Shown piece after piece: positions 7,811 through 64,000 of a DNA stretch of 64,000 nucleotides (within the stretch, counting starts at the first letter, position 1; each line of letters starts with the position of its first letter). A program made the position numbers and the translations under genes. Source of the DNA: an uncultured Chromatiales bacterium (lineage in GTDB: Bacteria > Bacteroidota > Ignavibacteria > SZUA-365). A model generated the notes under the pieces. That model had not been told where the DNA came from and did no database searches. It saw only the letters and a list, made by a program, of their open reading frames with translations. The stretch spans positions 35,314 through 99,313 of the forward strand of contig CAYUWG010000004.1 of the NCBI GenBank assembly GCA_964448285.1, in the 5' to 3' direction.

Positions 7811-9024
7811 GGTTCGATGGAAGGATCGATTCGTTCAACGGAAATTTCACCGTCATGAAACTCTACTCGCAAGGTTTTTTCGGTTCCCAATTCGGCTTTT
7901 GAATGAATGATCCCTTCGTTCGAACGGATGAGCGTATATCCCAATTTCTTGATGCGTGTCGGATCATGTGCAATGAACCGCTCCCGCAAGATCTCAACCG
8001 ATGACGTTGCGCGTTCGACAGATAATGAACTGCGGTGATGGATATCCGCGGTTAACTGATCGAGTGTTTGAAGCGTGGATTCCAGTCTATCGGCTGGACG
8101 GGTTAAAGATCGGTGCATACGAAGATGTGAGAGATGCGAGCGGGCTTGCTCCATGCGAAAATCTACAAATTTCCGGAGCGTGTAAGAAACATCGCGAAGC
8201 TGTTGTCTGGTCTCCCGCAAAGATGGAACGACAAGTTCGCCGGCAACGGAAGGCGTTGCCGCGCGCAGATCAGCCACGAAATCCGCAATGGTGAAATCGA
8301 CTTCATGGCCGACCGCCGATACGACCGGGATACGGGAATTTGCGATTGCACGAGCGACGCGTTCTTCATTGAATGCCCAAAGGTCTTCAATGCTTCCTCC
8401 TCCTCGCCCTACGATGATGATGTCGATGGAACCATACCTGTTGCATCGTTCTATTCCAAGCGCAATATCTTCTGCTGCTCCTGGGCCCTGAACCTGTACG
8501 GGAACGAGAATCAGTTGCACCGATGCATTTCTCCGCTGAATGACACTCAGCATATCTTTTATTGCTGCGCCCGTTGCTGAAGTCACGAGCGCAACGACCT
8601 GAGGATACTCCGGAAGCGGTTTCTTTCTTTCTTCGTCGAACAGTCCTTCCGAATGAAGCTTCCTTTTTACTCTTTCGAATGCCGCTCGCAACGCACCTTC
8701 CCCACGGGGGTGCATTTCGCGAACGACGAGTTGGTAATTGCCGCGTGGTTCATAAACAGTGAGGCTCCCTCGACAGATGACTTCCATTCCATCGACCGGC
8801 CGGAAGAAAAGCGACGCAGCGTTTCCTCGAAACATAACTGCGGACAACTGGGCGCGTTCATCTTTCAGCGTAAAGTACACATGTCCCGATCCGTGCCGAT
8901 GAACATTGGAGAGTTCGCCGACAACGAAGACGTCCCGGAAGGATTCCTCAAGTACCGTCTTGATCGATCCGGTAAGTTCTGATACCGTGATCGGTGCGAA
9001 GTCGCTTGCGTGATGATCGTTCAT
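7807..9024 (-). CDS. xseA: exodeoxyribonuclease VII large subunit
   Basis: 405 aa with an OB-fold N-terminus (VVGELSNV..HGSGHVYFTLKD) and the catalytic region IIVGRGGGSIEDLWAFNEE. Confidence 0.92.
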   Translation of the reverse strand: MNDHHASDFAPITVSELTGSIKTVLEESFRDVFVVGELSNVHRHGSGHVYFTLKDERAQLSAVMFRGNAASLFFRPVDGMEVICRGSLTVYEPRGNYQLVVREMHPRGEGALRAAFERVKRKLHSEGLFDEERKKPLPEYPQVVALVTSATGAAIKDMLSVIQRRNASVQLILVPVQVQGPGAAEDIALGIERCNRYGSIDIIIVGRGGGSIEDLWAFNEERVARAIANSRIPVVSAVGHEVDFTIADFVADLRAATPSVAGELVVPSLRETRQQLRDVSYTLRKFVDFRMEQARSHLSHLRMHRSLTRPADRLESTLQTLDQLTADIHHRSSLSVERATSSVEILRERFIAHDPTRIKKLGYTLIRSNEGIIHSKAELGTEKTLRVEFHDGEISVERIDPSIEP

Positions 9025-9074
9025 GGAATGTTGTTGTCGGAAGTAAATGGAGTTTAATGAGAACGGAAGGTGCT

Positions 9075-10685
9075 TTAGATGTTCATCCAGCCTGTTGTTT
9101 TAGAACGAACAGTATCCCGAACATATTTTTCATCTGACGCAGGATAGTCCGTCGTGTAATGAAGCCCCCTGCTTTCTTTCCTGAGAAGTGCGCTTTCGAT
9201 AATCAATCGCCCCGCAAGAGTGAGATTTCGCAATTCGAGCAGTTCCTCGTTGATGCGAGTCTTTTTGTAAAAGCGGTCAACTTCGTCGAAGAGCAGTACT
9301 ACGCGGCGATGGGCACGCTCAAGACGCAGCGTGGAGCGAACGATGCCGACGTAGTCCCACATCAATGACTGGAGTTCTCTGCGATTGTGCGAAATGAGGA
9401 TCCACTCTTCCGAGTTATCCGTCCCACTTTCATCCCATTGCCTGACGCGGTCAACAGGCGGCGTCATCGGCTTCGAGCGAAGGGTCGTCTCGGCGGCTCT
9501 CCGAGCAAACACGACAGCTTCGAGAAGCGAATTGCTCGCGAGGCGATTCGCGCCGTGAAGTCCTGTCATCGAGACCTCACCGACAACGAGCAAACCCTCA
9601 AGTGTGGAGTATGCATCCGCATCGCTGACGACTCCGCCACAGCAATAATGCGCAGCCGGAACGACCGGTATCCTTTGATGCGCGATGTCTATTCCTACCG
9701 AAAGGCACTTCTCGTAAATGTTGGGGAATGCATTCCTGATTTCATCACTGCTTCTGTGCGTCATATCGAGATACACGCAGTCGTCACCACGCTTTTTCAG
9801 TTCAGCGTCGATCGCGCGGGCAACGATATCACGCGGTGCAAGCTCTTCGCGCCTGTCATAATGAGGCATGAACCGCTCGCCGCTTTTGTTACGTAGTACT
9901 GCGCCTGCTCCACGCAGAGCCTCAGAAATGAGAAACGAACGCGCAGAAGGATGATAGAGCGTCGTCGGGTGAAACTGGATGAATTCCATATTGGCGATAG
10001 CAGCACCCGCTCTGTGCGCCATTGCGATGCCGTCGCCTGTTGCGATCGAGGGATTGGTCGAGTGACGATACACCATGCCGCATCCGCCCGTTGCCAGAAC
10101 AGTCGTCGATGCGACGCACGTTTTCACGACGTGATTCTCATTATCCAATACATACGCACCCCAACAACATCCGTTCATCGGTGCGCTACCCTTATCTAAG
10201 AGATTTCTATTCGTGATGAGATCGACGGCCATGTGGTTTTCGAGGAGCGTGACGTTCGGGTGATGGCGCACTTGCGAAACCAGTGCATACTCAATCTCTC
10301 GACCGGTCAGATCAAGTGCGTGGACAATGCGGTTGCGTGAATGCCCTCCCTCCCTTCCTAAGTCCAGTTGGTCCTTCTCTATAGTAAACCGGACTCCGTA
10401 TTCGATGAGTCGTTTCACTGCTTCCGGTCCAGAGCGAATTACCATTTCGACAATCTCACGATTGCATAAGCCGTCGCCTGCGTTCAGAGTATCCTGGATG
10501 TGTAAATCGTAAGAGTCGTCCGATCCAAGTACTGAAGCGATTCCCCCTTGTGCATAGTTCGTATTCGATTCGAAGGTCTGCTTCTTCGTTACCAGAATCA
10601 CTTTTCGCTCATCAGCGATCGAGAGCGTGTAGAACAAACCTGCTATTCCACTTCCGATTACAAGGACATCGCTTTGCAGAATCAT
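9075..10685 (-). CDS. nadB: L-aspartate oxidase
   Basis: 536 aa. It has the FAD motif VLVIGSGIAGL, plus YAQGGIA and GLHGANRLASNSLLE. Confidence 0.93.
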   Translation of the reverse strand: MILQSDVLVIGSGIAGLFYTLSIADERKVILVTKKQTFESNTNYAQGGIASVLGSDDSYDLHIQDTLNAGDGLCNREIVEMVIRSGPEAVKRLIEYGVRFTIEKDQLDLGREGGHSRNRIVHALDLTGREIEYALVSQVRHHPNVTLLENHMAVDLITNRNLLDKGSAPMNGCCWGAYVLDNENHVVKTCVASTTVLATGGCGMVYRHSTNPSIATGDGIAMAHRAGAAIANMEFIQFHPTTLYHPSARSFLISEALRGAGAVLRNKSGERFMPHYDRREELAPRDIVARAIDAELKKRGDDCVYLDMTHRSSDEIRNAFPNIYEKCLSVGIDIAHQRIPVVPAAHYCCGGVVSDADAYSTLEGLLVVGEVSMTGLHGANRLASNSLLEAVVFARRAAETTLRSKPMTPPVDRVRQWDESGTDNSEEWILISHNRRELQSLMWDYVGIVRSTLRLERAHRRVVLLFDEVDRFYKKTRINEELLELRNLTLAGRLIIESALLRKESRGLHYTTDYPASDEKYVRDTVRSKTTGWMNI

Positions 10686-11899
10686 GTCTGGCCCGAACGA
10701 GTGTGTTCACTGCTCAACGAGGCAAAGGCTTCGGTTAAAATCCTCACAGCGTCATCAGCATGATCTTCCGTAAAGATGAGCGGCGGAAGCAGGCGGATGA
10801 TTTTTCCCTGCGTCACGTTTACCAGCAAACCCCTTTCAAGTGCTTCCTGCATAAACGGTTCTGCATCGCAATTCAACTCGATCGCCATCATCATCCCCTT
10901 ACCACGCACATCGACAATCGTGTCATCGAAGCGCGCTTTCAGTTTCGACAAAGCCTCGAGGAAGTATTCAGATACACGAACAACGCTCTCCATCAACCGT
11001 TCATTCCGAATCGTGTCAATCACTGCCTTGCCTGCGGCACATGCAACGGGATTTCCGCCAAAGGTCGTACCGTGTCTGCCTAATCCGTACACGTCGGAGA
11101 GATGTTCTTGCACTAAGATCGCTCCCAGAGGTAGTCCTCCACCGAGACCTTTTGCAAGAAGAACGACGTCCGGTTCAAATGACCAATGATCGAAGGCAAA
11201 GAACTTCCCGGTCCGTCCAAGACCGGATTGTATTTCGTCAGCGACGACGAGGAACCCGAATTTCTTCCGGAGATCTTTCAGTGTATCGATGAAATGATTC
11301 GAAGCCGGAATAATGCCTGCTTCGCCTTGAATGAATTCCAGAAAGACCGCACAGGTGTTTTCGTCGATGTTTCGCTCGAGCGCTTCAACGTCGTTGAATG
11401 GGAGGTGATGACAATCATCGAGAAAAGGTTCGTACCCCTCGCGGTATTTCTCCTGAGCCATCAACGAAAGCGCGCCCATCGTTCTCCCGTGGAAGCCTCC
11501 ATGGAAGGCGACGAGCGCGGATCTCCCTAACGCTGTTCCCCATTTACGCACAAGTTTTATTGCGCCTTCCGTCGCTTCCGTGCCGCTGTTACAGAAAAAA
11601 ATCCGATCGAAACCGGAGAATGACTTGAGTGACTCCGCTAATTCTATTTGTGCAGGCTGAAGGAAAAGATTGGAGAGATGCACGTAGTTTCTGATCTGCC
11701 CCTGTATGGCTTCGAGAACATTTCTCTGGCCATAACCAAGAAGATTTACCGCGAGGCCTCCGAACAGGTCAAGATATTTTTTCCCGCTCTGCTCGAACAG
11801 GAATACGCCTTCCCCGCGGGTGATGTGGAGATTCAGTCGCCTGTACGTCGGGATCAATGTCGCTTGTTCTCGTTCGAGAAGATTCATACTTCTCGGCAA
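10682..11899 (-). CDS. argD: class-III (acetylornithine/ornithine-type) aminotransferase
   Basis: 405 aa. Motifs present are CNSGTEATEGAIK and DEIQSGLGRTGKFFAFDHW. Substrate assignment within the family is uncertain. Confidence 0.78.
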   Translation of the reverse strand: MPRSMNLLEREQATLIPTYRRLNLHITRGEGVFLFEQSGKKYLDLFGGLAVNLLGYGQRNVLEAIQGQIRNYVHLSNLFLQPAQIELAESLKSFSGFDRIFFCNSGTEATEGAIKLVRKWGTALGRSALVAFHGGFHGRTMGALSLMAQEKYREGYEPFLDDCHHLPFNDVEALERNIDENTCAVFLEFIQGEAGIIPASNHFIDTLKDLRKKFGFLVVADEIQSGLGRTGKFFAFDHWSFEPDVVLLAKGLGGGLPLGAILVQEHLSDVYGLGRHGTTFGGNPVACAAGKAVIDTIRNERLMESVVRVSEYFLEALSKLKARFDDTIVDVRGKGMMMAIELNCDAEPFMQEALERGLLVNVTQGKIIRLLPPLIFTEDHADDAVRILTEAFASLSSEHTRSGQT

Positions 11900-51597: not shown

Positions 51598-51859
51598 GGA
51601 TGTAGAATACTGAATTCATGCATGGAAGGAAAGAGTCTGAACTTGGATTTACTTGATTCTTTTGATTACCAGGAATGTCTGAACTTGGATTTTCTCTCGA
51701 TTACCAGGAAATGTCTGAACTGGGATTTACTTGATTCTTTCGATTACCAGGATGAAGGAGCGAATCAATCCTGGAAATCCTTTAATCCCAGAAATCAAGG
51801 TTCAGACAATCCTAATCACAGTTCAGACAACCCTAATCACGGTTCAGACAACCTACAGC

Positions 51860-51976
51860 GTCTGAACTGGGATTTACTTGATTCTCTCGATTACCAGGAT
51901 TCGAGTTCTTTCTTCGAATTCTCGAACGAGAACAATCCAGGAAATCCTTTAATCCCAGAAATCTCAGTTCATACAA
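51860..51976. mobile_element. complete ~117-nt MITE-like unit (A - 33-nt core - B)
   Basis: It has imperfect ~40-nt terminal inverted repeats (GTCTGAACTGGGATT... / ...AATCCCAGAAATCTCAGTTCATAC). The central core is TCGAGTTCTTTCTTCGAATTCTCGAACGAGAAC with an apical TTCGA/TCGAA hairpin. There is no coding capacity. Confidence 0.55.
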
Positions 51977-51984
51977 CCAACAAT

Positions 51985-52102
51985 GTCTGAACTGGGATTC
52001 ACTTGATTTTTTCGATTACAAGAATTCGAGTTCTTTCTTCGAATTAGCGAACGAGAACAATCCTGGAAATCCTTTAATCCCAGAAATCACGGTTCAGACA
52101 AC
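51985..52102. mobile_element. second complete ~118-nt MITE-like unit (A - core - B)
   Basis: Its architecture is the same as 51860-51976, with a few substitutions by eye. Confidence 0.55.
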
Positions 52103-52107
52103 ATGGT

Positions 52108-53301
52108 TCAGACAACCCCAAGTACGATCACAGAAGCTACCGCGCCGGGGCCGCCGATGTTATGCGTCAGACCGAGCCGGGCGTTAGGGATTTGTCTTTC
52201 ACCGGCAGTGCCTCGCAGGTGTTCGGTGATTTCGCAAACCATGCGAATGCCCGTCGCACCGACTGGGTGACCGCAGGAAAGTAATCCGCCGCTCACGTTT
52301 ATCGGAATTTCGCCGTCACGCAACGTCGCACCCGAACGGATAAGCTCCTTCCCTTCACCTGCCGCACAAAAGCCGAGGTCTTCGTAAGTAAGAAGCTCGA
52401 CAATGGAAAAGCAATCATGAACTTCCGCAAGATCAATCTGTTCACGCGGGTTCGTAATGTCCGCTTCATCATACGCCTTTCGCGCAGCAACCTGCGTTGC
52501 TCGAAACGACAGGAGATCATACGACGCATCGAAGTACGGCAAATCCCACCCCGACGAGACGGAAACTCCGAGCCCCTTGAGATAGATCGGTGATCCGGAA
52601 AATTTCTGCGCGTCTTCACTGCGCACGAGTATCACCGCTGCTGCTCCATCGGTTGTCGGGCAAGAGTCCATGACCGTGAGCGGGTCGGCGACGATGGGCG
52701 ATTGCAATACCTGTTCGATCGTAACAGCTTTCCTGTGATGGGCTTTCGGATTGAGGCAGGCATTCGCATGGTTCTTCACGCTGATGGCGGCGAGGTCTTC
52801 GCGCGTGACACCGAATTTTTCGAAGTGCCTGCTTGCGTACATCGCGAACGTCCCCGCCGCTGTGAAGCCTTTCTGATAGAACGGATGCCCCATCTCAACC
52901 ATCATCTTCACGATGCTGTCCTGCGGACTGCGGTCGCGTAGTTTTTCCACACCGAGCGCCAGCGCGACGTTGCATTCACCGGCGAGCAGCGCGTTCACAG
53001 CACCGCGAATGGCTTCGGCCCCCGTCGTACAGTAATTCGAAACGCGAATGATCGGAATATCGAACAGCCCGAGCGGCTCCGCGAGGTCCATCCCTGAACG
53101 CCCTTTGTAAATACCCGCTTCCGGAAATGCAGTGCCGAGCCATGCGGCATCTATCACACTCAGCGGAATCCCCGCATCGTTTACGGCAGCACGCGCAGCC
53201 TCCGCGACGAGGTCATCGTAGCTCTTTTCGAACTGTTCACCGAACTTCGTCCACCCCACACCGACGATGCAAACTTTATCCTTCAAGCGCTTCTCAGCCA
53301 T
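52108..53301 (-). CDS. SCP-x / archaeal-type thiolase (thiolase domain protein)
   Basis: 397 aa with a nucleophile Cys context (RVSNYCTTGAEAI) and C-terminal GGLLSCGHPVGATG and HNIGGPG motifs. Confidence 0.88.
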   Translation of the reverse strand: MAEKRLKDKVCIVGVGWTKFGEQFEKSYDDLVAEAARAAVNDAGIPLSVIDAAWLGTAFPEAGIYKGRSGMDLAEPLGLFDIPIIRVSNYCTTGAEAIRGAVNALLAGECNVALALGVEKLRDRSPQDSIVKMMVEMGHPFYQKGFTAAGTFAMYASRHFEKFGVTREDLAAISVKNHANACLNPKAHHRKAVTIEQVLQSPIVADPLTVMDSCPTTDGAAAVILVRSEDAQKFSGSPIYLKGLGVSVSSGWDLPYFDASYDLLSFRATQVAARKAYDEADITNPREQIDLAEVHDCFSIVELLTYEDLGFCAAGEGKELIRSGATLRDGEIPINVSGGLLSCGHPVGATGIRMVCEITEHLRGTAGERQIPNARLGLTHNIGGPGAVASVIVLGVV

Positions 53302-53351: not shown

Positions 53352-54761
53352 TCATGCTCCTTTCGTGACTTCAACCGGTCGGCACTTCCAAAAGTAGTTC
53401 GGGAAGTTTCCCGCATCGTGATAGCGCCGAAGGACAAGTTCCACACGGTCTCCGATTTCCATCGGGATGTTTTCGTCCGTGACCTGAAGCGTCAAGCGTC
53501 CTCCTCCATCGAGATCGATAGTCGCCATTCCAAGAGGCGGTTCGGGCGTCGGGAAATAATGCTCATGCGTGATTGCATAGACCGCCCCGTTGCGTTGCAA
53601 AGGGTAGTTCTCAAGTTTTTCACTGCGGCATGAGGGACACGATGGAATAGGTAGCGTAACCACCGCACCGCACGAAGCGCAGCGAAGGGCTTTCAAGTTC
53701 AACCAGAGTTGCCTGTTCCGCTCTGACATGATCTCAGATGTAAAACCGGCGCTGGTACCCTCAGCACCTGCATGAAGCTGATGGAGGCTGAGATAGCGAT
53801 TGTATGAAATCTGATAAGACTGCTTCAGAGCTATCCTGAAGGGCGATCGTTTCGGCTGTTCTTTCATTCGCAGCGCAAAACCATCCGCACCATCGCCATA
53901 ACCGATAACGCACAAGCGCTCATCCGATTTCGAGCGTTCCATTGCCGCACACATCATCAGCAGCGTATGCGGCGCACCGGTCAATCCTAACTGTGAACTC
54001 GCGAGATCGATGTATTGCGTTTTCACATCGAAGCCGCTCTCTCTGAGTATGCCACTCCCGCTCTTCACATCGGGACTGTACACGATAACCTTCGAGACTT
54101 CTTCAGGCTTCCATCCCGTCGCGGTGAGCAACGCCTGGATGACATTCTTCACTGGCTGCTTGTACGCGCCTTCCCTTGCGAAGCGCTGGTCGGCGTTGCG
54201 TGGAAAGCGTTCGAGCGCGAGACGCCATGTATCAGGTTGCGCGGAATTCGATTCCACGTTTGTGATAATCTCCACGAGACAGTCTTCCGTGCTCACAAGA
54301 AGCGCCACACCTGCGTGGCCGAAAAGGATTTCATCTGACGCACCAGGTTTCTGAACGCGCGTATCTGCTGCGACGATGAGAACGTTGCGGCAGACCCCGG
54401 CTTCGATCCAGTCGCGAGCGACGGCCAATGCTTTCGTGCCGCTGCGCAAAGAAGAATTGAGGTCGAGTATGCGCGTTCTCGGATCGAGGTCGAGAATCGA
54501 AGCGAGCATTGTTGCACTCGATTTTTCAGAGAAGGGCGCCGTTGTCGTTGCGAAGATCAGACCATCGATTCGTGTCGATGCAACCTCCTTCAGTGCATCG
54601 AATGACGCATAAGCAGCGAGCGTAATGGCATCCTCATCATGGCCGGCAATTGCGCGCGCGCCTTGCATTGATGGCCGGTTCCAGGCGTTTTGTGTCTCGG
54701 CGTTGAGAAGTCTTCGCCTGCAAAGCGCGACTCCCCACGAGGCAATTCCGGCGCTGTTCAT
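53352..54761 (-). CDS. HMG-CoA synthase/KAS-III-like domain fused to a DUF35 (Zn-ribbon + OB-fold) domain
   Basis: 469 aa. The N-terminal ~340 aa resemble archaeal HMGCS (DEDAITLA, ADTRVQKPGASDEILFGHAGVA, VIGYGDGADG). The C-terminus has CASCGAVV...CPSC followed by an OB-fold (MATIDLDGGGRLTLQV...GDRVELV). Confidence 0.75.
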   Translation of the reverse strand: MNSAGIASWGVALCRRRLLNAETQNAWNRPSMQGARAIAGHDEDAITLAAYASFDALKEVASTRIDGLIFATTTAPFSEKSSATMLASILDLDPRTRILDLNSSLRSGTKALAVARDWIEAGVCRNVLIVAADTRVQKPGASDEILFGHAGVALLVSTEDCLVEIITNVESNSAQPDTWRLALERFPRNADQRFAREGAYKQPVKNVIQALLTATGWKPEEVSKVIVYSPDVKSGSGILRESGFDVKTQYIDLASSQLGLTGAPHTLLMMCAAMERSKSDERLCVIGYGDGADGFALRMKEQPKRSPFRIALKQSYQISYNRYLSLHQLHAGAEGTSAGFTSEIMSERNRQLWLNLKALRCASCGAVVTLPIPSCPSCRSEKLENYPLQRNGAVYAITHEHYFPTPEPPLGMATIDLDGGGRLTLQVTDENIPMEIGDRVELVLRRYHDAGNFPNYFWKCRPVEVTKGA

Positions 54762-55897
54762 TCCGTCATCTCTCTGGCGATGAGGAGTTTGAGTATTTCG
54801 CTCGTTCCCCCGCCGATAAGGGTGAAGCGGATGTCTCGGAGATACCGTTGTATCGGATATTCCATTGCATATCCGTAAGACGCGAAGATGCGCGCTGCCT
54901 TGTCACAGATGTCTAATGCGCATTCCGTTGCGAACAGCTTTGCCATCGCAGCGATGCGTGTGATCTCTTCACCGCTGTCTTTCATCCTCGCGGCATAGCG
55001 AACGAGTTGCGTTGCTGCTTCGAGGTCCGTGCCCATTTCCGCGAGTTTCAGTTGTATCGCTTGGAAGCGATTGATCGGCTTCCCAAACTGCTGGCGCTCA
55101 TTCGCATAGCGCAGTGAATCCGCTAACGCCGCACGTGCAACGCCAAGCGCAAGCGCTCCGGTCATTATGCGAATGTCGGAAAGGATTTCCCGCAGACGCG
55201 ACTCCCCTTCGCCTTCATCTCCAAGTCGATGATCGTCGGGAACGAAGCAATCTGTGAACGACACCTCGGACGTTGGCGAGGCCCACACACCAAGTTTCTC
55301 GATCGTACGACCAACGTGTAATCCGCTGAACTCCTTTTCGACAAGAAAGATCGTCAGCCTCTTGTCGTCACCGCAGCGCGCGAAGACCGTGAAGAAATCC
55401 GCCACGGGCGCGGCTGTGATCCACATCTTCTGGCCGTTCAAGCGATATCCTCCGTCAGCTTTCACCGCAGTCGTCGCTATGGACGAAAGGTCACTCCCGG
55501 CGTTTGGCTCCGTGATGCAGATCGTTCCGATTTTTTCCCCAAGAAGAGCGGGCGAAAAAAGACGCTTGCGGATGTCGTCGTTGCCGAGCGCGAAGAGAAA
55601 GTGCGTCCCCATCAGCGACTGCATCGCGGCGCATGCGGCAAGCGAAAGTGAACCGCGTGCGATCTCTTCGATAGCGAAACAGAACGTGAGGAAGTCCACA
55701 CCTGCACCCCCGACGGATTCGGGATAGCGTAAGCCGAAGAATCCCATATCGGCGAGTTCGATGAACAGTGCGCGCGGAAATTCCTTCGCGTCATCCAACG
55801 CGGCAGCGACCGGCTTTACTCGCTCGTCAGAAAATCGTGCGAATGTCTCCCTGATGAGGTTCTGTTCTTCAGTCAGATGATTGTTCATCCTGATCAT
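54758..55897 (-). CDS. acyl-CoA dehydrogenase-fold flavoprotein
   Basis: 379 aa with the typical ACAD N-, middle and C-terminal domains (CITEPNAGSDL, YPIQRYLRDIRFTLIGGGTSEI). Confidence 0.85.
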   Translation of the reverse strand: MIRMNNHLTEEQNLIRETFARFSDERVKPVAAALDDAKEFPRALFIELADMGFFGLRYPESVGGAGVDFLTFCFAIEEIARGSLSLAACAAMQSLMGTHFLFALGNDDIRKRLFSPALLGEKIGTICITEPNAGSDLSSIATTAVKADGGYRLNGQKMWITAAPVADFFTVFARCGDDKRLTIFLVEKEFSGLHVGRTIEKLGVWASPTSEVSFTDCFVPDDHRLGDEGEGESRLREILSDIRIMTGALALGVARAALADSLRYANERQQFGKPINRFQAIQLKLAEMGTDLEAATQLVRYAARMKDSGEEITRIAAMAKLFATECALDICDKAARIFASYGYAMEYPIQRYLRDIRFTLIGGGTSEILKLLIAREMTE

Positions 55898-56375
55898 TCA
55901 TCCAGAATCTTCTCAGACAGCAGCCTCCACCGGCGGGGAGTGATGTTACCGTTTCAAAATGGAGGCGCGTCCCAAGTGCGGCGTTTACTTCATCGACAAC
56001 CGTCTTCAGCCAGTGGTCACATCCGATTTGGTCTTCGTGCAGGAGTCCTTCCCGTTGATGCCAATGGTACCACGGGCAATCGTTGTGACGTGCCTGGTGT
56101 TTTCCATCCGTTGTCGATTCGAGCAACTCTGCATCTTCGCCCATTGCCTGACTGCTCGAAACGAAAAGCTGCGCAACTTGCGCTGCAACATCTCCCTGAG
56201 GATCGATCTTCCTGAGATAAAACTTTGCAGTGTCCTTTCCGACTTCTTCCCAATACTTCTTCACCAACTCGACCGGATCGAGATCGGGATTCAACGCGAG
56301 CGCCGCACGCCGCCATTCGAAATGCGATGCTCGCATGATCCCCGAAAGAATTTCCAATTTCTTCGCATCATCCAT
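55869..56375 (-). CDS. small Cys/His-rich protein (possibly ATC-hydrolase-like family)
   Basis: About 168 aa from the internal Met. It contains HNDCPWYHWH...IGCDHW...LPAGGGCCLRRF and overlaps both neighbouring genes. The family assignment is from memory only. Confidence 0.5.
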   Translation of the reverse strand: MDDAKKLEILSGIMRASHFEWRRAALALNPDLDPVELVKKYWEEVGKDTAKFYLRKIDPQGDVAAQVAQLFVSSSQAMGEDAELLESTTDGKHQARHNDCPWYHWHQREGLLHEDQIGCDHWLKTVVDEVNAALGTRLHFETVTSLPAGGGCCLRRFWMNDQDEQSSD

Positions 56376-58107
56376 TGTCGTTCCTCCGAAGTGCTGCCGT
56401 CGCTTCTTCATCTACTGTGTATGTCTCCGGATCGATCACCACACCGTAGTCGTTTCGCGCGACATCGAAAGAAAGGACGCCATTACGCACGTCGCGTAAT
56501 ACACGCTCGACGGGGCGCAATCGCGGATCGCTAAATCCTCCCCCACCTCCTGCATGCTGATGATAGATCGTTCCCTTCGGGACGCCGGTAAAGAGATCGA
56601 GCCCGAGCGGTTTTTTCTCCGAGCCATCCGGGAATTTCAGCGTGATGGAATTGAGTGATCCTGCTTCACCTCCGTTGAGTCCGAATGCCGGTTCCTCATC
56701 GCCATCACCAAAGAGGACAAGCTGCGTGTTGTCGTTGCCGATTTCGAATATCGTTTCCACACCGAGGCCGCCCCGCCACTGACCGGCGCCCGCAGAGTCA
56801 CAGAAGTATTCATGCTTCAGAAGTAGATGCGGTGTTTGCTGTTCGAACATCTCATAGTCCTGATCGAGTAAGCCGCCGGAAGCGTCTATCATCCCGATGT
56901 GATCATAGCCATCGACTCCGTGCATCGCGCCGGAGCCACCTTTCAAACCCATGAAACAGATATCGACGTACTTGTCATTCTTGCGCGGATCGATGCCTGT
57001 AGTGAGCGAACAGAGCAGGTGATTCCATCCGGCTGTGATGCGATCCGGAATGACGTTTTGAAGCGCGCGTGAAATTGCGTCGGCGTTGTTCGGGCAGAGG
57101 TGGTTGCCGTATGTCGTCGCCGCGGGATAGGATGCATTGAGAATCGTTCCCTCGGGAATGATGATCTCGATCGGTTCAACCATTCCCTGATTATGCGGAA
57201 TATCGGGATTCACCATTTGGAGAAACGTCAGAACCGTCGCAGAAGCGCTCGATGTATAGGTTCCGTTGACGAACGCATTCGTTTGCGCGTCAGTCCCGGT
57301 GTAATCGAAGCGAATGCGATCGTCGCTCACGGTGATCTCGACACGGATCGTGTAGCGCTTACCGACGTTCCTGCCATCGTAATACACGAGTGATTCGCCG
57401 TGATAAACACCGTTCGGAATTGCAGCAATTTCCGCTTCCATCATTTTGCGCGTCGCGTCGAAGAGTGCGCGCTTGTGTGTCTCGTATCGTTCAACGCCGT
57501 ATTTCTCAAGGAGCTTGACCATGCGCCGTTCACCGACGATGCACGAACCGATTTCTGCACGCATGTCTTCTTCCACCATCGGAAACCGAATGTTCGCGAA
57601 GATCATCTCCCATACGTCCTTGCGAAGCTTTCCTTTCTCGTAGACTTTCACGGGTGGAATGCGCAACGCCTCCTGCCAGACTTCCGTCGCATTCGGATTA
57701 TAGCCGCCTGCGACCGCGCCGCCGATGTCCGCCTGGTGTCCCTTGCAGGCTGACCATGCGACGAGCTTGTCTTCGAAGAAGATCGGCTTATAGACCGCAA
57801 CGTCGTTGTTCTGATTACCCATGCTGAAAACGTCATTATGGAAAATCACGTCGCCGGGGTGGATGTCGTCACCGAAGTAGTTGATAATGTATTTGCAGAC
57901 GGGGCCGAGCGAGAACGAGAGGATCGGGAGGTTCTCAGTCTGTTCGAGCATGTTTCCTCCTGCATCGTAGAGACCCGTGACGAAGTCCTTCGCTTCGCAA
58001 AGGATCGGTGAGCGCGTCGTCTTTTGCAGCGATATGCTCATCTCACTCGTGATCGATTTGAATGCACGCGCAAAGACGGAGAGAAGAATCGGATCGACGT
58101 TGCTCAT
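56368..58107 (-). CDS. hydantoinase B/oxoprolinase family protein (HyuB-like)
   Basis: 579 aa. The N-terminus (DPILLSVFARAFKSITSEMSISLQKT) and overall length match HyuB/caprolactamase-beta-type subunits. Confidence 0.9.
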   Translation of the reverse strand: MSNVDPILLSVFARAFKSITSEMSISLQKTTRSPILCEAKDFVTGLYDAGGNMLEQTENLPILSFSLGPVCKYIINYFGDDIHPGDVIFHNDVFSMGNQNNDVAVYKPIFFEDKLVAWSACKGHQADIGGAVAGGYNPNATEVWQEALRIPPVKVYEKGKLRKDVWEMIFANIRFPMVEEDMRAEIGSCIVGERRMVKLLEKYGVERYETHKRALFDATRKMMEAEIAAIPNGVYHGESLVYYDGRNVGKRYTIRVEITVSDDRIRFDYTGTDAQTNAFVNGTYTSSASATVLTFLQMVNPDIPHNQGMVEPIEIIIPEGTILNASYPAATTYGNHLCPNNADAISRALQNVIPDRITAGWNHLLCSLTTGIDPRKNDKYVDICFMGLKGGSGAMHGVDGYDHIGMIDASGGLLDQDYEMFEQQTPHLLLKHEYFCDSAGAGQWRGGLGVETIFEIGNDNTQLVLFGDGDEEPAFGLNGGEAGSLNSITLKFPDGSEKKPLGLDLFTGVPKGTIYHQHAGGGGGFSDPRLRPVERVLRDVRNGVLSFDVARNDYGVVIDPETYTVDEEATAALRRNDNG

Positions 58108-60227
58108 GAAATCGACTCCTGGAGTTTCGCGTGTTTCGCAATCCGAGCAAGATGTTCATGTCCTTTTTGATAGATGACGAACGAACCGTATTTGTCGCAG
58201 ACGGAATCGTATGAACCGCTCACGAAGATCGTCGTGTTCACCTGCTCGATGATTGCCGGACCGTGAATGCGATTTCCGAACTGTGTCGAATGCCCGTCAT
58301 ACACGGGAATGGTGAGAAATGCATTCTCCTCCGGAATGAACACTGCACGCTCGGTTTTGAGTGCGTTGCTCGCGTCCTCGCCTGCGTATTCTTCTTCACG
58401 ATAGGCTGGCTTTTCCGTAACGCCGACAGCTCTCACACGGATGTTGATCAACTCGATCGGAGTGTTTTCCGCTTCAAGTGAATATCCGAACATCCTGTTA
58501 TGCTCGATATGGAAAGGAGCCATGATGGCGGAAAGATCGCGTCGCCGGATTGTGTCGATCGGCACGTCGAAAGAGACTTCGTGATACTGCTTCACGTAAC
58601 GGCAGTCCAACTTCAACTGGAAGCGCCTGCGATCCTCTTCGATCTTTTCTTCAGCGAGAATACTCCGTCCATCGCTGAGCATCTCATCGATGATCGTACT
58701 GAGTCGCTCCCAGTCGAGTTTGTTCAACGGTGTAACGAATGACCGAACGAAATCATGCTGCAGATCGCTCATGAGCATCCCGGCTGCGCAGAAGATCGAC
58801 GATTCGCGAGGAACGATGAACATGGGGATTTCGAGTTCGTGACAGATCATGCATGAGTGAATCGGTCCGGCACCGCCTGCGACTACCATCGGAAACTCAC
58901 GTGGATCGTACCCTCGCTTGATCGTGATCTCGCGAACGCCTTGCGCCATGTTGGTATTGATGACGCGATACATACCTGCCGCCGTTTCTTCGACTGAGAG
59001 TTTCAAGAGCTTCGCGATGCTTTCGATCGCACTCCTCGCTGACTCAACCTCGAGTTTCATTTTCCCGCCGGCAAAGAATTCCGGATCGAGATAGCCGAGA
59101 ACGAGATCGGCGTCTGTGCACGTCGGGAGGATTCCACCTCGACCATAACAAGCGGGACCGGGTGATGCGCCTGCACTCTGCGGACCCATTCGCAGCAATC
59201 CTCCTTCATCGATCCATCCGATGCTGCCTCCGCCGGCGCCGATCGTAACGATGCCCAGCATGGGAAGTGCGATGCGATAGCGATTGATCTCCCCTTCCGT
59301 TTCCACGATGGGCGAACCATCGAGCACGAGCGCCGCATCGAAGCTCGTCCCTCCCATATCGACGGTTACGCAGCTTTCGTGTCCGTGTGCGCGAACGTAT
59401 TCAAGTCCGGCGCCGGGACCCGCGGCGGGACCGGAGAGTAACGTCATCGATGCATGTCGCCGAGCGACTTCCGGCGAAACGACTCCACCGTTCGACTGCA
59501 TGATCAGTAGCACACCGCGGAATCCAATCGCATGAAGGCGCGATTGAAGGCTTGCGATATACGAATCGAGAATCGGTCCGACATAGGAGTTCAGCACGGT
59601 CGTGCTAACACGGTCGTAAAAACGTACCGACGGCAGTAACTCGGATGACACCGTGAGATACGCATCCGGCATTTCCTTGCGAACGATTTCCGCCGCGCGT
59701 TCTTCGTGTTGTGCATTCGCAAAAGAATTCATGAAACAGATTGCGACCGCATCGATCGCTTCTCTCCTGAAAAGTCGGATTGCCGAAAGAACATCATCCT
59801 CATCTAACGGATGGATTTCTTCGCCGCAATAATCCAACCGTCCCTTCACACCGATGCGCAGATAGCGTTCGACAAGAGGCGGGACGTTCGTGTAGCGATT
59901 GTTGTACTGTTCCTCGCGGATCCCGCGCCTCATTTCCAAAGCATCCCGCACTCCGGCAGTCGTGACGAGGCCGGTCTTCGCACCGGACATCGTCAGTGTC
60001 GCATTCGTCGTGACTGTGGTTCCATGCACGATCGTAGCGATCGTAGGCGCGAAATCTTCCAGCGAAAGATTTCTGCTCACTGCGATTTCGTTCAAACCAT
60101 TGAGAAGTCCGATTGACGGGTCTCCGGGTGTGGAGAGCACTTTGTAAATGCGCGGCTCTTCTCCATCGGCTGTGAGAAGAAAGTCCGTGAACGTTCCGCC
60201 AACGTCGATTCCAATCTTCAATGCCAT
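58104..60227 (-). CDS. hydantoinase A/oxoprolinase family protein (HyuA-like, ATP-binding)
   Basis: 707 aa with ASKHA-fold motifs (IGIDVGGTFTDF, VDMGGTSFD). It overlaps hyuB by 4 nt. Confidence 0.9.
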   Translation of the reverse strand: MALKIGIDVGGTFTDFLLTADGEEPRIYKVLSTPGDPSIGLLNGLNEIAVSRNLSLEDFAPTIATIVHGTTVTTNATLTMSGAKTGLVTTAGVRDALEMRRGIREEQYNNRYTNVPPLVERYLRIGVKGRLDYCGEEIHPLDEDDVLSAIRLFRREAIDAVAICFMNSFANAQHEERAAEIVRKEMPDAYLTVSSELLPSVRFYDRVSTTVLNSYVGPILDSYIASLQSRLHAIGFRGVLLIMQSNGGVVSPEVARRHASMTLLSGPAAGPGAGLEYVRAHGHESCVTVDMGGTSFDAALVLDGSPIVETEGEINRYRIALPMLGIVTIGAGGGSIGWIDEGGLLRMGPQSAGASPGPACYGRGGILPTCTDADLVLGYLDPEFFAGGKMKLEVESARSAIESIAKLLKLSVEETAAGMYRVINTNMAQGVREITIKRGYDPREFPMVVAGGAGPIHSCMICHELEIPMFIVPRESSIFCAAGMLMSDLQHDFVRSFVTPLNKLDWERLSTIIDEMLSDGRSILAEEKIEEDRRRFQLKLDCRYVKQYHEVSFDVPIDTIRRRDLSAIMAPFHIEHNRMFGYSLEAENTPIELINIRVRAVGVTEKPAYREEEYAGEDASNALKTERAVFIPEENAFLTIPVYDGHSTQFGNRIHGPAIIEQVNTTIFVSGSYDSVCDKYGSFVIYQKGHEHLARIAKHAKLQESIS

Positions 60228-60880
60228 GATGCTGCCTCCGTGATGTGCAGCTTTGCCCCGATATCCACGCCGATGCGAAACGTTTTATTGTTCGCTTCAG
60301 CAATATGGGGCGGGGCTTTGTCCTTGACGTATTGCAGAAAGTCCTCAGGCGTATAGGACAATAAGCCTGATCCGAAAACGCAACCGAGCATGATGATGTT
60401 GACCGACTTGACCGCACCGGCTTTCTCGGCGAGTTCCGTTGCCGGCACGATGAAAACATTCTGCGTTACGGCAGTGACGCTGTTTTGAAGTGCTTCCAAC
60501 TCAGGATACTTGCCATCGCCTTTCTTCAGGACGAATTGCTGTGAGAGGACGAATGGAACGACGGAAGCGGTGTTCATGATGACGACGGTGTTGTTCGAAA
60601 TGAATGGAAGCGCACGTACGGTTTCCACCGGTTCGAAACCGATGACGATGTCGGCACCACCGATTGGAATGATCGGACTGTTTCCGCAATCGATCAACAC
60701 CGACGATTGCACGGCGCCGCCTCGCTGGGCCATGCCATGCAGTTGTCCGCTTACAACCTGATGATCGCGATCGACGAAGAACTCACTGAGGAGCTTGGCC
60801 GCTGTGATAACGCCCTGGCCGCCTGTTCCCGCCAGGAGAATTCTTTTACCGGGCATAGGAAAATTGTCATGCATCGACAT
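60218..60880 (-). CDS. iorB: indolepyruvate:ferredoxin oxidoreductase beta subunit (2-oxoacid:Fd oxidoreductase gamma-like)
   Basis: 220 aa containing ILLAGTGGQGVITAAKLL. It is coupled to iorA by a 14-nt overlap. Confidence 0.85.
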   Translation of the reverse strand: MSMHDNFPMPGKRILLAGTGGQGVITAAKLLSEFFVDRDHQVVSGQLHGMAQRGGAVQSSVLIDCGNSPIIPIGGADIVIGFEPVETVRALPFISNNTVVIMNTASVVPFVLSQQFVLKKGDGKYPELEALQNSVTAVTQNVFIVPATELAEKAGAVKSVNIIMLGCVFGSGLLSYTPEDFLQYVKDKAPPHIAEANNKTFRIGVDIGAKLHITEAASWH

Positions 60881-62750
60881 GTGCGGTCACCTGTGAAATC
60901 GCATCGTGATTGCAAACCTGTGCGCACAGATCGCAACCGTCGCACAACGTGGGATCGATGATGTAATCTCCATCCTCGATGTAAATGGCGGGGCATCCCA
61001 ACACGCGCACGCAGAGAGAGCAGCCGTTGCACACCGACATGTCGATCACATAGGGCAGCCGCTTTCCCTCCGGATTGATTTTGTTTTCATACACGACGCA
61101 AGGCGAATTGCAGATGATGACATTGACGCCATCACCCTTCTTCGCTTTCTTCATCGCATCGAGCGTGGCTTCTTCATCGAAAGGATCGACGGAGTAGATT
61201 TCTTTCACGCCAAGACCGAGCACGGCAGTCTTGATCGAGATTCCCATGGGATTGTGTCCGTTCGATGAGAAGACGCCACAGCCATCTTCACGCATCGCAA
61301 CGGTCGGTTGAAAGCCTGTCATTGCCGTGACGTAGTTGTTCAGGATGAAGACGGTGACCTTGTCTTTCGCCTGAACGGCGTTCGCCAAAGCGGGAAGACC
61401 GCTGTGAAAGAACGTCGAATCGCCGATGAATGCGAGCGTGCGTTCGCCAGTCGTTCGTGCAATACCGCTTGCCTGGCTGATACTCGCCCCCATGCACAAC
61501 AACACGTCGCAACAGTCAAGGGGTTCGCCATAACCGAGCGTGTAGCATCCGATGTCGTTGACATAGACGGTCTTCTTTCCAAAGATGCGCTTCGCCAAAT
61601 AATACGTCGTTCGATGGGGACATCCGGGGCAAAGCACGGGAGGCCGCTCCGGCAAATCGGGAACGACGACGACTGGCTTCGGTTTTTCGTCCAAGTTGAG
61701 ATAACGGCGAATGCCTTTCTCGACGATGTCGGGAGTGTATTCGAATTCCAAAGGAAAGTGGTCGGTCTCTTTTCCCATGATTGGAATCAGTCGGCCGGCG
61801 CGAAACGCCGCAAGAGCGACAAGCTCTTCCACATAGGGAGTGAGTTCTTCGACGACCAATACAGAATCGACAGAGAGAAGAAAGTCCTGAAGGATCGTTG
61901 ACGGTACCGGGTATGCGCCGATCTTGAGAACGCTTACTGTTTCCTGCAGTCGAAGCTGATTGACGAGTGACTCGACGTAGGTGAACGCGACGCCGCTCGC
62001 GACGATACCCGCACGGCCGGTTCCCATCCGGGGAAAGAACTCCGACTCTGCGAGGAGTTTTTCCGCGAGCGCGAAATGCTCGATCAACTCCTTTCTCATT
62101 CGGCGTGCATTTCCCGGGATGGGAACATAGCGCGGGGGATTCTTCACGAACTTCACTTCGTTCTTCACTTCCGGCAACGAATCGAATTCCACCATCGAAC
62201 TCGTGTGACACACGCGAGTCGTCGGTCGCATGATGACGGGCAAGCGTGTTTGCTCGGAAAAACCGAACGCATATTTCGTCATGCGACGGGCATCCTCAGC
62301 GGTCGAAGGGTCGAATACCGGATAGTACAGATACTTGCACAGATGGCGTTGGTCTTGCTCGTTCGAACTCGTGATCGCCGACGGATCACCCGCCGAGACG
62401 ATCACCATTCCGCCTTCGACGCCGATGTACGGCATTGTCGCAAGAGGGTCAGCCGCATAACTCAACCCGACGTGCTTCATTCCGCACATCGAACGTGCAC
62501 CCGTGAGACTTGCCGCATATGCAATCTCGACGGCGATTTTCTCGTTCACGGAATATTCGAACAGGATGCCGGCTTTCTTGTGGATGCGTGCGAAGAGATC
62601 GCCAACTTCGGACGAAGGAGTGCCGGGATAGCAGGAAAAGAATTGAACGCCTGCTTCCAGTGCGCCGCGCACGATTGCGTGGTTTCCTAAGAGAATGGAT
62701 TTCGCACCGGGAGTGTTCGAAAGGATTTCGTGTGAAGAAGAAGCGCTCAT
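60867..62750 (-). CDS. iorA: indolepyruvate:ferredoxin oxidoreductase alpha subunit
   Basis: 627 aa with a TPP-binding region (GDSTFFHSG) and a C-terminal 2x[4Fe-4S] motif (CNGCSLCV...CDGCDLCAQVC). Confidence 0.9.
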   Translation of the reverse strand: MSASSSHEILSNTPGAKSILLGNHAIVRGALEAGVQFFSCYPGTPSSEVGDLFARIHKKAGILFEYSVNEKIAVEIAYAASLTGARSMCGMKHVGLSYAADPLATMPYIGVEGGMVIVSAGDPSAITSSNEQDQRHLCKYLYYPVFDPSTAEDARRMTKYAFGFSEQTRLPVIMRPTTRVCHTSSMVEFDSLPEVKNEVKFVKNPPRYVPIPGNARRMRKELIEHFALAEKLLAESEFFPRMGTGRAGIVASGVAFTYVESLVNQLRLQETVSVLKIGAYPVPSTILQDFLLSVDSVLVVEELTPYVEELVALAAFRAGRLIPIMGKETDHFPLEFEYTPDIVEKGIRRYLNLDEKPKPVVVVPDLPERPPVLCPGCPHRTTYYLAKRIFGKKTVYVNDIGCYTLGYGEPLDCCDVLLCMGASISQASGIARTTGERTLAFIGDSTFFHSGLPALANAVQAKDKVTVFILNNYVTAMTGFQPTVAMREDGCGVFSSNGHNPMGISIKTAVLGLGVKEIYSVDPFDEEATLDAMKKAKKGDGVNVIICNSPCVVYENKINPEGKRLPYVIDMSVCNGCSLCVRVLGCPAIYIEDGDYIIDPTLCDGCDLCAQVCNHDAISQVTAHVDA

Positions 62751-62806: not shown

Positions 62807-64000
62807 CTACGCCGGTTGAAGCGCTCCGATTTGCTCTATACCGGCATGGAGTTCCTCGTCGGTGAGATAGTGATCGATGAGTTTGCCGTTGTAGTAATCT
62901 TCGTATGCACTCATATCGAAATAGCCGTGACCGCAAAGGTTGAAGAGAATGGTCTTCGACTGACCCTCTTCGCGCGCTTTGTTCGCTTCGCGTACGACCT
63001 GTGCAATGCCGTGCGTCGCCTCAGGTGCCGGCAGGATTCCCTCCGTGCGTGCGAACTTGACGCCCGCATCGAAGCACTCCAATTGCTGGATTGCCGTCGC
63101 TTCGATCAACTTGTCCTTGAGCAATTGACTGACGATCACACCCGCGCCGTGATAGCGCAATCCCCCCGCGTGAATCGGCGCCGGGACGAACGTATGTCCG
63201 AGCGTGTACATCGGCAGGAGCGGCGTCATCCCGATCGTGTCGCCGAAGTCGTAGAGGAACTCGCCCTTCGTCAGCTTCGGACACGATGCCGGTTCGACGG
63301 CAACACAGCGAATATTCCTTCCTTCGGTGAGTTTGTAGCGAAGGAATGGAAATGAAATGCCGGCAAAGTTCGAACCGCCGCCGAACGGCGCAATGACGAT
63401 ATCCGGAAAATCACCGGCCATCTCCATTTGCTTCACGGCTTCAAGTCCGAGCACTGTCTGATGCATGAGTACGTGATTGAGTACACTTCCGAGAGAATAC
63501 TTTTTATTCTCGTCCATCGCAGCGCGCTCGACCGCTTCCGAAATCGCGATGCCTAAACTTCCCGGTGAATCCGGCGACTCCGAGAGAATCTTTCGACCCG
63601 CTTCCGTTCTATCGCTCGGTGATGCGAGTACTTCGGCGCCCCACGTATTCATGAGCAGCTTCCTGTACGGTTTCTGGTTGAAGCTGATCTTCACCATATA
63701 GACTTCGAGTTCAAGCCCGAAGTGATTACATGCGAAACTCAATGCGCTTCCCCACTGTCCGGCGCCTGTTTCCGTCGTCAGGCACTTCACGTTTTCCATC
63801 TTGTTGTAATACGCCTGCGGAACGGCGGTATTCGGTTTATGTGACCCTGCGGGGCTTACACCCTCGTACTTGTAGTAAATCTTCGCGGGCGTGTCGAGGA
63901 GCCTTTCAAAGCGACGAGCGCGGAACAACGGAGTCGGCCTCCAAATCTTGTAGATGTCCCGAACTTCTTCCGGAATATCGATCCAGCGCTCCTGCGAGAC
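62807..64000 (-). CDS. TrpB-like PLP enzyme, type 2 tryptophan synthase beta (TrpB2); N-terminus lies outside the window
   Basis: The frame stays open to nt 64000 ([32 protein letters not shown]...). The PLP-Lys context is [11 protein letters not shown], and GGGSNFAG is present. The track start at 63928 is an internal TTG. Confidence 0.88.

Follow-up and report, generated by a model that had tools for sequence, protein, structure and literature searches.

An HMG-CoA synthase-like/DUF35 fusion protein that has lost its catalytic tetrad, and its probable role beside a thiolase in an iaa-type operon

The fusion gene and its domains

The window analysed here is a stretch of 64,000 nucleotides (nt) from contig CAYUWG010000004.1 (assembly GCA_964448285.1), part of the metagenome-assembled genome (MAG) of an uncultured bacterium of the Bacteroidota. 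It carries a gene whose product joins a domain resembling 3-hydroxy-3-methylglutaryl coenzyme A (HMG-CoA) synthase (HMGCS, or HMGS) to a DUF35 domain, followed by a gene for an SCP2-type thiolase. An earlier reading of the letters (the original prediction) had described the two parts as a single polypeptide, and domain profiles, Protein Data Bank (PDB) matches and an AlphaFold2 (AF2) model all agree with that description. The features of the pair are as follows.

53352..54761, minus strand: fusion gene, HMGCS-like domain plus DUF35, 469 amino acids (aa) (open reading frame (ORF), domain profiles, alignments, AF2 model)
53787..54755, minus strand: HMGCS/FabH-fold N-terminal domain (N-domain), residues 3-325 (profile and pairwise alignments)
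54543-54545, 54447-54449, 54078-54080 and 53982-53984, minus strand: codons at the former catalytic positions, now Thr73, Leu105, Tyr228 and Leu260, respectively
53610..53696, minus strand: rubredoxin-like zinc ribbon zf-ChsH2, residues 356-384 (Pfam 26 bits, cut-off 23.2)
53376..53600, minus strand: DUF35 OB-fold, residues 388-462 (Pfam and PDB chain matches)
52108..53301, minus strand: SCP2-type thiolase, the presumed catalytic partner (NCBIfam PRK06157, 438 bits, cut-off 403)

The fusion gene starts with an ATG at 54761, overlapping the stop codon of the upstream acyl-CoA dehydrogenase (ACAD) gene by 4 nt, and the thiolase gene starts 50 nt downstream of it. ACP_syn_III was the sole Pfam match to the N-terminal part, and neither NCBIfam model of archaeal-type HMGCS was reached (PRK04262, 156.7 bits against a cut-off of 244; TIGR00748, 114.3 bits against 353). 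The Pfam family OB_ChsH2_C was marginal over residues 388-444, just below its cut-off (26.9 versus 27.1 bits), and the Pfam scan detected no MaoC domain in the protein.

When the PDB was searched by sequence, the best match to the N-domain was PhlA (5m3k_A, E 5.7e-19), with the Methanothermococcus HMGCS 6esq_I (5e-17), a second PhlA-type chain (9skh_A) and MucA (9vbo_A) also among the matches. The C-terminal part matched the DUF35 chains 6esq_E and 9skh_E, BbsA (7pxp_A) and ChsH2-DUF35 (6ok1_B). The zinc ribbon's four cysteines (C361, C364, C375 and C378) do not vary across a divergent alignment of 40 sequences, and neither do the C-terminal motif NYFWKCRP of the fusion family, with YFWK at its core, and the D42-E43-D44 motif of the N-domain. 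This DED motif is also found in true HMGCS, as seen in the alignments with 6esq_I and with a canonical paralogue encoded in the same genome, and it is probably structural since the true enzyme carries it too.

The catalytic tetrad is lost throughout the family

To locate the Glu-Cys-His-Asn tetrad of HMGCS in the fusion, we used four independent alignments: HMMER against 6esq_I and 5m3k_A, MAFFT with 90 homologues, BLASTP against the genome's own canonical HMGCS, and MAFFT of the family (228 sequences, being 227 members and the HMGCS paralogue). All four gave identical columns. The Glu position is occupied by Thr73 (ATTTAPF in the fusion, GSESHPY in HMGCS), the Cys position by Leu105 (NSSLRSGT versus EFACKAGT), the His position by Tyr228 (VIVYSPD versus VFHQPN) and the Asn position by Leu260 (LGLTGA versus LGNTYS). 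The canonical paralogue, which served as a positive control, has E, C, H and N at these columns. The original prediction had placed Leu/Ser at the nucleophile and ATTTAPF at the Glu segment by eye; its register was correct, and it understated the loss, as His and Asn are also replaced and the whole tetrad is gone.

The loss is family-wide and common to about 227 full-length relatives. Thr occupies the Glu column in 195 of the 227 members and Leu the Cys column in 144, while the former Cys, His and Asn columns vary across the family (L/P/T/V/R, Y/N/A/S/P and N/L/F/D/Y, respectively).

It had been allowed that the register might be shifted and that the cysteine of EAGVCRNV might be the nucleophile. 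This residue, Cys124, falls in a different column from the nucleophile and shows no conservation (Cys in 27 of 227 sequences, Ala in 69), and it was therefore ruled out.

A fused homologue (P0074) is also present in a MAG of the Promethearchaeota (an Asgard archaeon), where the tetrad positions hold T, L, Y and D. Dead fusions are thus not confined to bacteria.

The predicted structure resembles subunits of HMGS/ACAT/DUF35 complexes

The AF2 model of the single chain, built from the 40-sequence alignment, had a mean predicted local distance difference test score (pLDDT) of 93.2 and a predicted template modelling score (pTM) of 0.92. Low confidence was confined to the linker around residues 330-345, and beta-strands were modelled across residues 357-462. 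Foldseek placed MucA (9vbo, 9vbt), 6esq_I and PhlA (5mg5, 5m3k, 9skh) at the top, above free-standing bacterial HMGCS and FabH. The N-domain therefore has the HMGCS fold of the thiolase superfamily in both the model and the structural search. Its match to 6esq_I, from the archaeal thiolase/HMGCS/DUF35 complex, had a template modelling (TM) score of 0.90 normalised to the target and a root-mean-square deviation (rmsd) of 1.7 Å. Because Foldseek ranks MucA, 6esq_I and PhlA first, the modelled N-domain appears to be the HMGS-type subunit of the HMGS/ACAT/DUF35 complex class.

The fusion gene is paired with a gene for an intact thiolase

A word-indexed search returned 92 relatives, nearly all of about 470 aa and of the same architecture, and an exhaustive search yielded at least 326 clusters (50% identity) at E values of 1e-30 or better. 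Databases name these proteins HMG-CoA synthase, FabH C-terminal-domain protein or OB-fold protein. We then scanned species-representative genomes with a profile of 12 closer sequences, the broad 40-sequence alignment having no stretch conserved enough for this purpose. The scan gave 80 loci in Binatia, Myxococcota, Pseudomonadales, Bacteroidota, KSB1, Calditrichota, Fibrobacterota, Planctomycetota and others, and two metagenome contigs brought the set to 82.

A gene for an SCP2-type thiolase lies directly 3' of the fusion gene in all of the 82 loci except two that are short and truncated, so that the pairing is obligatory in this set. Among the partner thiolases recovered, the catalytic Cys and HDCF are kept in 78 of 78 and GHP in 75 of 78, the other three being gapped there. 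The thiolase in the window has all of these motifs: Cys91 (in NYCTTG, as originally noted), H295 in HDCF (295-298) and H345 in GHP (344-346).

When 80 fusions were placed in a maximum-likelihood tree, the 27 from iaa contexts (described below) grouped on a single branch (support 100/100). The thiolases of these loci share 65-84% identity with that of the window, compared with about 40% for the thiolases of other contexts; the Pseudomonadales fusions in the set are about 30% identical to the window fusion and their thiolases about 40%. Between the window and the Bacteroidota-type iaa clusters, median identity is lowest for the N-domain (30.5%), higher for DUF35 (44.6%) and highest for the thiolase (67.5%). 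No other part of the operon evolves as fast as the N-domain, which far outpaces the partner thiolase. These data suggest that constraint on the dead domain has been relaxed, which is the pattern that would be expected of a non-catalytic domain with a structural role.

Nested direct and inverted repeats fill the spacer that separates iscS from the thiolase gene (51598-52121): a 125-nt unit occurs twice and 41-nt units four times, with GGTTCAGACAA-type termini, and the stop codon of the thiolase gene overlaps the last of these termini. In a bioreactor metagenome, a related strain has one extra 21-nt repeat copy at 52090.

The fusion is not part of a mevalonate pathway

A mevalonate role for the fusion had been called unlikely on account of a dxs gene at 5646-7565. 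This gene is indeed dxs (TIGR00204, 832 bits) and the conclusion stands, although dxs is not the decisive argument. The genome, which is 97.9% complete, gave no match to HMG-CoA reductase (PF00368), and a canonical HMGCS is encoded elsewhere in it; on these grounds the mevalonate role was ruled out.

The canonical HMGCS belongs to a trio that precedes the window by about 27 kb on the same contig (C4:6113-8772). It has 361 aa, an intact E-C-H-N tetrad and 60% identity to 6esq_I, and it scores 515.6 bits against TIGR00748 and 513.8 bits against PRK04262. The other two members are an SCP2-type thiolase of 387 aa (CAS, HDCF, GHP) and a DUF35-like protein of 133 aa. The genome therefore has a canonical HMGCS yet no HMG-CoA reductase by the PF00368 search. 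The genes next to the trio look AtuA-type (DUF1446) by eye. For annotation, fusions that carry the name HMG-CoA synthase should not be counted as evidence of the mevalonate pathway.

The pair lies at the end of a nine-gene operon

On the minus strand of the window, the fusion and thiolase genes are the last two of nine: TrpB2-like, IorA, IorB, HyuA, HyuB, a small ATC_hydrolase-like protein, ACAD, fusion and thiolase. Stop and start codons overlap at most junctions. The remaining genes are:

54758..55897, minus strand: IaaF-type ACAD, of the decarboxylating (2-aminobenzyl)malonyl-CoA dehydrogenase type (C-terminal LIGGGTSEI)
55869..56411, minus strand: small conserved protein, 180 aa, weakly ATC_hydrolase-like (Pfam 25.9 bits, below the cut-off)
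56368-58107, minus strand: hydantoinase B, HyuB (domain profiles)
58104-60227, minus strand: hydantoinase A, HyuA (domain profiles)
60218-60880, minus strand: indolepyruvate:ferredoxin oxidoreductase beta subunit, IorB (Pfam POR for the IorAB pair)
60867-62750, minus strand: indolepyruvate:ferredoxin oxidoreductase alpha subunit, IorA (TIGR03336, 665.8 bits, cut-off 650.9)
62807..64000, minus strand: TrpB2-like pyridoxal phosphate (PLP) enzyme, the first gene of the operon, which runs past the window end (PRK12391, 602.6 bits, cut-off 366)

The replacement of YEG by GGG is the signature of the IaaF subclass of decarboxylating benzylmalonyl-CoA dehydrogenases (PMC8360864). The ACAD of the window has this replacement, in LIGGGTSEI, and falls in the IaaF subclass; its identity to the ACAD of an iaa-type operon from Betaproteobacteria is 70%. 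The hydantoinase pair, 67-80% identical to the pair of iaa-type operons, is of a kind predicted to act as an ATP-dependent 2-oxoindoleacetyl-CoA lactamase (PMC5214803). The 180-aa protein is kept at the same position in related loci with 47-73% identity, and its gene overlaps both the hyuB and the ACAD genes; the same slot in the Sulfuritalea-type operon is filled by a NucS_C-like ORF.

IorAB sits at the entry position where the Aromatoleum operon has the CoA ligase IaaB. No gene for an AMP-binding ligase was found in the operon or in the clusters of close relatives, the rest of the genome not having been searched for IaaB. The TrpB2-like gene recurs within iaa-type clusters of several phyla (8 loci, 71-79% identity). 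It suggests that indole may be captured as tryptophan and passed through an aminotransferase and IorAB, which would be a route of anaerobic indole or tryptophan degradation. TrpB2-like/PALP genes were noted in L014, L020, L035, L054, L057, L058, L066, L080 and L083, and in L083 the TrpB-like PALP gene adjoins a RidA gene. No polyketide synthase (PKS) or nonribosomal peptide synthetase (NRPS) genes were present among the neighbors of the fusion that we examined, which are catabolic enzymes.

A second half of the cluster completes an iaa-type gene set

A separate contig of the same genome carries the rest of the cluster, and a third contig the genome's aromatic degradation genes:

C35:3042-16339, minus-strand cluster genes: second half-cluster, with mutase, xanthine dehydrogenase (Xdh) flavin (FAD), iron-sulfur (FeS) and molybdenum (Mo) subunits, CoA-transferase and aminotransferase
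C25:29047-30180 and C25:40763-41803: BcrC and Oah/BamA loci (curated cut-offs passed)

The two halves are joined in a metagenome contig (L001), which encodes a fusion homologue of 60% identity with the same operon genes upstream. After the thiolase gene it continues with small and large B12-mutase subunits, a three-subunit Mo enzyme of the xanthine dehydrogenase family, a family III CoA-transferase and an aminotransferase. The gene order on C35 is the same: small and large B12-mutase subunits, Mo enzyme, CoA-transferase, aminotransferase. A MAG of Sulfuritalea (Betaproteobacteria) has, in order, a GntR regulator, HyuA, HyuB, a small ORF, ACAD, mutase, Mo enzyme, CoA-transferase and a periplasmic binding protein. 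The HyuA/B, ACAD, mutase, Mo-subunit and CoA-transferase proteins of the window and C35 are 65-80% identical to those of this operon and syntenic with them. The hydantoinase pair, B12 mutase, xanthine dehydrogenase-family Mo enzyme and family III CoA-transferase of an iaa operon therefore co-occur in the genome, on two contigs. In 27 loci from several phyla, the fusion and thiolase genes lie between genes for an IaaF-type ACAD and the mutase.

Beside the half-cluster and transcribed divergently from it, C35:13880-16339 encodes a protein of 819 aa with a 3-hydroxyacyl-CoA dehydrogenase domain and a C-terminal part that is weakly crotonase-like (23% identity). Genes similar to this dehydrogenase-domain protein are found in five related loci. 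The same contig has two foreign-looking inserts, one encoding a DUF559 endonuclease-like protein (10925-11476) and the other a 469-aa BNR/Sortilin protein with a type IX secretion system (T9SS) sorting tail (8352-9761), the latter between the FAD and FeS subunit genes.

Profile searches of the genome detected subunit C of class I benzoyl-CoA reductase (BcrC; 455.5 bits, cut-off 421) and the ring-cleaving hydrolase Oah/BamA (545.6 bits, cut-off 464). Because both score above curated cut-offs, the organism is predicted to be an anaerobic degrader of aromatic compounds. It occurs in metagenomes from subsurface, sediment, sludge and bioreactors.

Proposed role of the fusion

The original prediction had suggested a pseudo-enzyme or scaffold. 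This is supported by the loss of the tetrad, by the nearest relatives of solved structure, which are the non-catalytic PhlA and MucA and the HMGCS of the archaeal complex, and by the fast evolution of the N-domain. We think it probable that the fusion is a non-catalytic subunit, acting as a scaffold and CoA chamber, of the terminal 2-aminobenzoylacetyl-CoA thiolase of the iaa-type operon. The fusion would assemble with the thiolase as the DUF35 and HMGS subunits do in 6ESQ, PhlACB and MucABC, a flexible linker joining the dead HMGS fold to the DUF35 zinc-ribbon/OB module. The part of the fusion would be to maintain the solubility and proper shape of the thiolase and to form one wall of a shared CoA-binding chamber, while the thiolase would do all of the chemistry with Cys91, His295 (HDCF) and His345 (GHP).

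In the predicted pathway, indolepyruvate derived from tryptophan or indole would be converted by IorAB to indoleacetyl-CoA, on which the Mo-hydroxylase would act, and the hydantoinase-like lactamase would then open the ring. The CoA-transferase and the B12 mutase would follow, IaaF would form 2-aminocinnamoyl-CoA, and a hydratase/dehydrogenase would act next. Finally, the thiolase complex would cleave 3-(2-aminophenyl)-3-oxopropionyl-CoA to 2-aminobenzoyl-CoA and acetyl-CoA, and the products would enter the benzoyl-CoA pathway of the genome.

Several observations weigh against this proposal. The only relative that has been assayed was tested on acetoacetyl-CoA and on no aryl substrate (PMC12960953). 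The physical complex of fusion and thiolase is one that we infer by analogy. Likewise, we infer the scaffold role and the aryl-ketoacyl-CoA substrate. Several iaa-type operons, the betaproteobacterial type included, do not have the fusion-thiolase pair; because of this the pair is an optional terminal module dedicated to those operons that have it, its substrate being read from its position. We looked for expression of the operon in a metatranscriptome and in a second run labelled as RNA, both from studies with DNA of the organism, and obtained no usable operon reads. In addition, the near-invariance of Thr73 (195/227) and the invariance of D42-E43-D44 imply that some constraint acts on the former pocket. 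Such conservation would be unnecessary in a pure spacer, although CoA binding could account for it.

One alternative reading of this constraint is that the former HMGS pocket has been repurposed and the N-domain is an enzyme in its own right, for example in the hydration of 2-aminocinnamoyl-CoA or in CoA or acyl handling. Besides the two motifs, which persist across a very divergent family, the lack of a hydratase gene in the nine-gene operon is consistent with this. However, the former Cys, His and Asn positions vary freely, the N-domain is the fastest-evolving part, true HMGCS has the DED motif as well, and the crotonase-like part of the 819-aa protein on C35 lies beside the other half of the cluster. 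We consider this alternative quite unlikely. In a related version the pocket would be alive within a channelling complex, Thr73 and DED serving for hydration or gating the aryl-ketoacyl-CoA into the thiolase. This is similarly improbable in our view; if it were true, the bacterial HMGS/ACAT/DUF35 loci now regarded as orphans, about one thousand in number, would encode machines with two activities for bulky CoA esters and would not be evolutionary leftovers.

Another possibility is that the pair lies in the operon by chance, as a general thiolase for acetoacetyl-CoA or short-chain substrates with no specific iaa role. The assayed relative does cleave acetoacetyl-CoA (PMC12960953), many family members occur in unrelated contexts, and the iaa-type operons without the pair also fit this view. 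It is difficult to reconcile with the presence of the pair at the same place in 27 loci of several phyla, with the single clade that they form, with the much greater similarity of their thiolases to one another than to the rest, and with the start/stop overlap of the fusion and ACAD genes. We therefore give a chance association little weight.

It could also be speculated that the pair is a retro-aldolase like Ltp2-ChsH2(DUF35) or Sal-Shy, in which the fusion would serve as DUF35 anchor and 3-hydroxy-3-(2-aminophenyl)propionyl-CoA would be cleaved to 2-aminobenzaldehyde and acetyl-CoA. ChsH2-DUF35 matches the C-terminal part of the fusion, the operon in the window has no dehydrogenase gene, and DUF35-bound SCP2-type thiolase folds are reported to be aldolases in steroid side-chain degradation (PMC12329534). 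On the other hand, the thiolase keeps the full Cys/HDCF/GHP motif set, the DUF35 of the aldolases is attached to a MaoC hydratase while the fusion has no MaoC domain, and the dehydrogenase-domain genes beside the C35 half and in five related loci fit a beta-oxidation that ends in thiolysis. This makes a retro-aldolase very unlikely.

Least likely of all is a Friedel-Crafts C-acyltransferase like PhlACB or MucABC, moving acetyl onto or off an aromatic acceptor without thiolysis: PhlA is the best PDB sequence match, MucA and PhlA are among the top folds and the pathway intermediates are aromatic, but PhlC and MucB are without HDxF (PMC12960953) whereas the window thiolase and all 78 recovered partners keep HDCF, DUF35 is fused here, no PKS/NRPS genes are nearby, and the iaa pathway needs a thiolase and not an acyl shuttle.

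One well-supported fusion clade is a fixed module of an operon for anaerobic tryptophan/indoleacetate degradation, which provides it with a testable physiological substrate. Genomes that have this operon come from uncultured Bacteroidota, KSB1, Calditrichota, Fibrobacterota and Planctomycetota, with unclassified relatives besides. The gene content points to a variant of the iaa route in which indoleacetyl-CoA is made directly by IorAB and not by a CoA ligase.

Comparison with known systems

The protein type itself has already been described (2026, PMC12960953), and what is new here is the pathway assignment, for one clade only. The original prediction missed both this publication of the architecture and the iaa-type aromatic degradation operon. 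In the published survey, 1,001 of 1,030 bacterial HMGS/ACAT/DUF35 loci were without biosynthetic partners, and these roughly 1,000 loci had no pathway; the clade described here would now have one. The representative from P. fluorescens consists of a fused, tetrad-less HMGS-DUF35 together with an ACAT in which Cys, HDxF and GHx are all present. Its complex made neither HMG-CoA nor acetoacetyl-CoA and thiolysed acetoacetyl-CoA, an activity nearly abolished by H294Y in the HDxF of the ACAT, while isolated ACAT subunits of related complexes were insoluble or inactive (PMC12960953). The authors regard the P. fluorescens type as an evolutionary intermediate not yet recruited to a pathway (PMC12960953, Nat Commun 2026).

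The window fusion has every feature by which the PfACAT/HMGS-DUF35 type is recognised at the sequence level, namely the fusion, the loss of the tetrad and an adjacent intact ACAT. The likeness extends to the SCP2 type of the ACAT and the lack of PKS/NRPS neighbors, and the motif His is at 294 in the P. fluorescens ACAT and at 295 in the window thiolase. Compared by published description, the P. fluorescens complex is without a pathway whereas the window clade is embedded in a conserved iaa-type operon.

PhlACB (5M3K/5MG5) and MucABC (9VBO/9VBT) also have a non-catalytic, tetrad-less HMGS-type subunit and a DUF35 bridge to a thiolase-fold subunit; MucA and PhlA are without the E-C-H-N tetrad, and PhlC and MucB without HDxF (PMC12960953). 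They differ in consisting of three separate polypeptides, in this loss of HDxF, in catalysing Friedel-Crafts acetyl transfer and in belonging to biosynthetic clusters. The archaeal thiolase/HMGCS/DUF35 complex (6ESQ/6ET9) shares the N-domain and DUF35 folds and the SCP2-type thiolase neighbor. Its HMGCS is active and acetoacetyl-CoA is channelled towards mevalonate, whereas the site of the window fusion is dead.

The iaa operon of Aromatoleum aromaticum and Azoarcus evansii (Ebenau-Jehle 2012; Schühle 2016, 2021), whose gene content we took from the Sulfuritalea locus of the same order and from PMC8360864, is like the window cluster in its IaaF-type ACAD with GGG, hydantoinase-like pair, B12 mutase, Mo-hydroxylase, family III CoA-transferase and gene order. 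In the window cluster, by comparison, IorAB replaces the ligase IaaB, genes for TrpB2 and an aminotransferase are added, and the genes are split over two contigs. The pair is inserted between iaaF-like and iaaG-like genes, a position at which it is absent in the betaproteobacterial-type operon examined.

The benzoylsuccinyl-CoA thiolase BbsAB (7PXP) likewise combines DUF35 with an SCP2-type HDxF thiolase and, in the anaerobic degradation of aromatic compounds, cleaves an aryl beta-ketoacyl-CoA. BbsA consists of DUF35 alone and lacks an HMGS-like domain, and the substrate and the pathway (toluene) are different. By analogy of its parts and its setting, BbsAB is the closest functional counterpart of the fusion and its putative partner thiolase.

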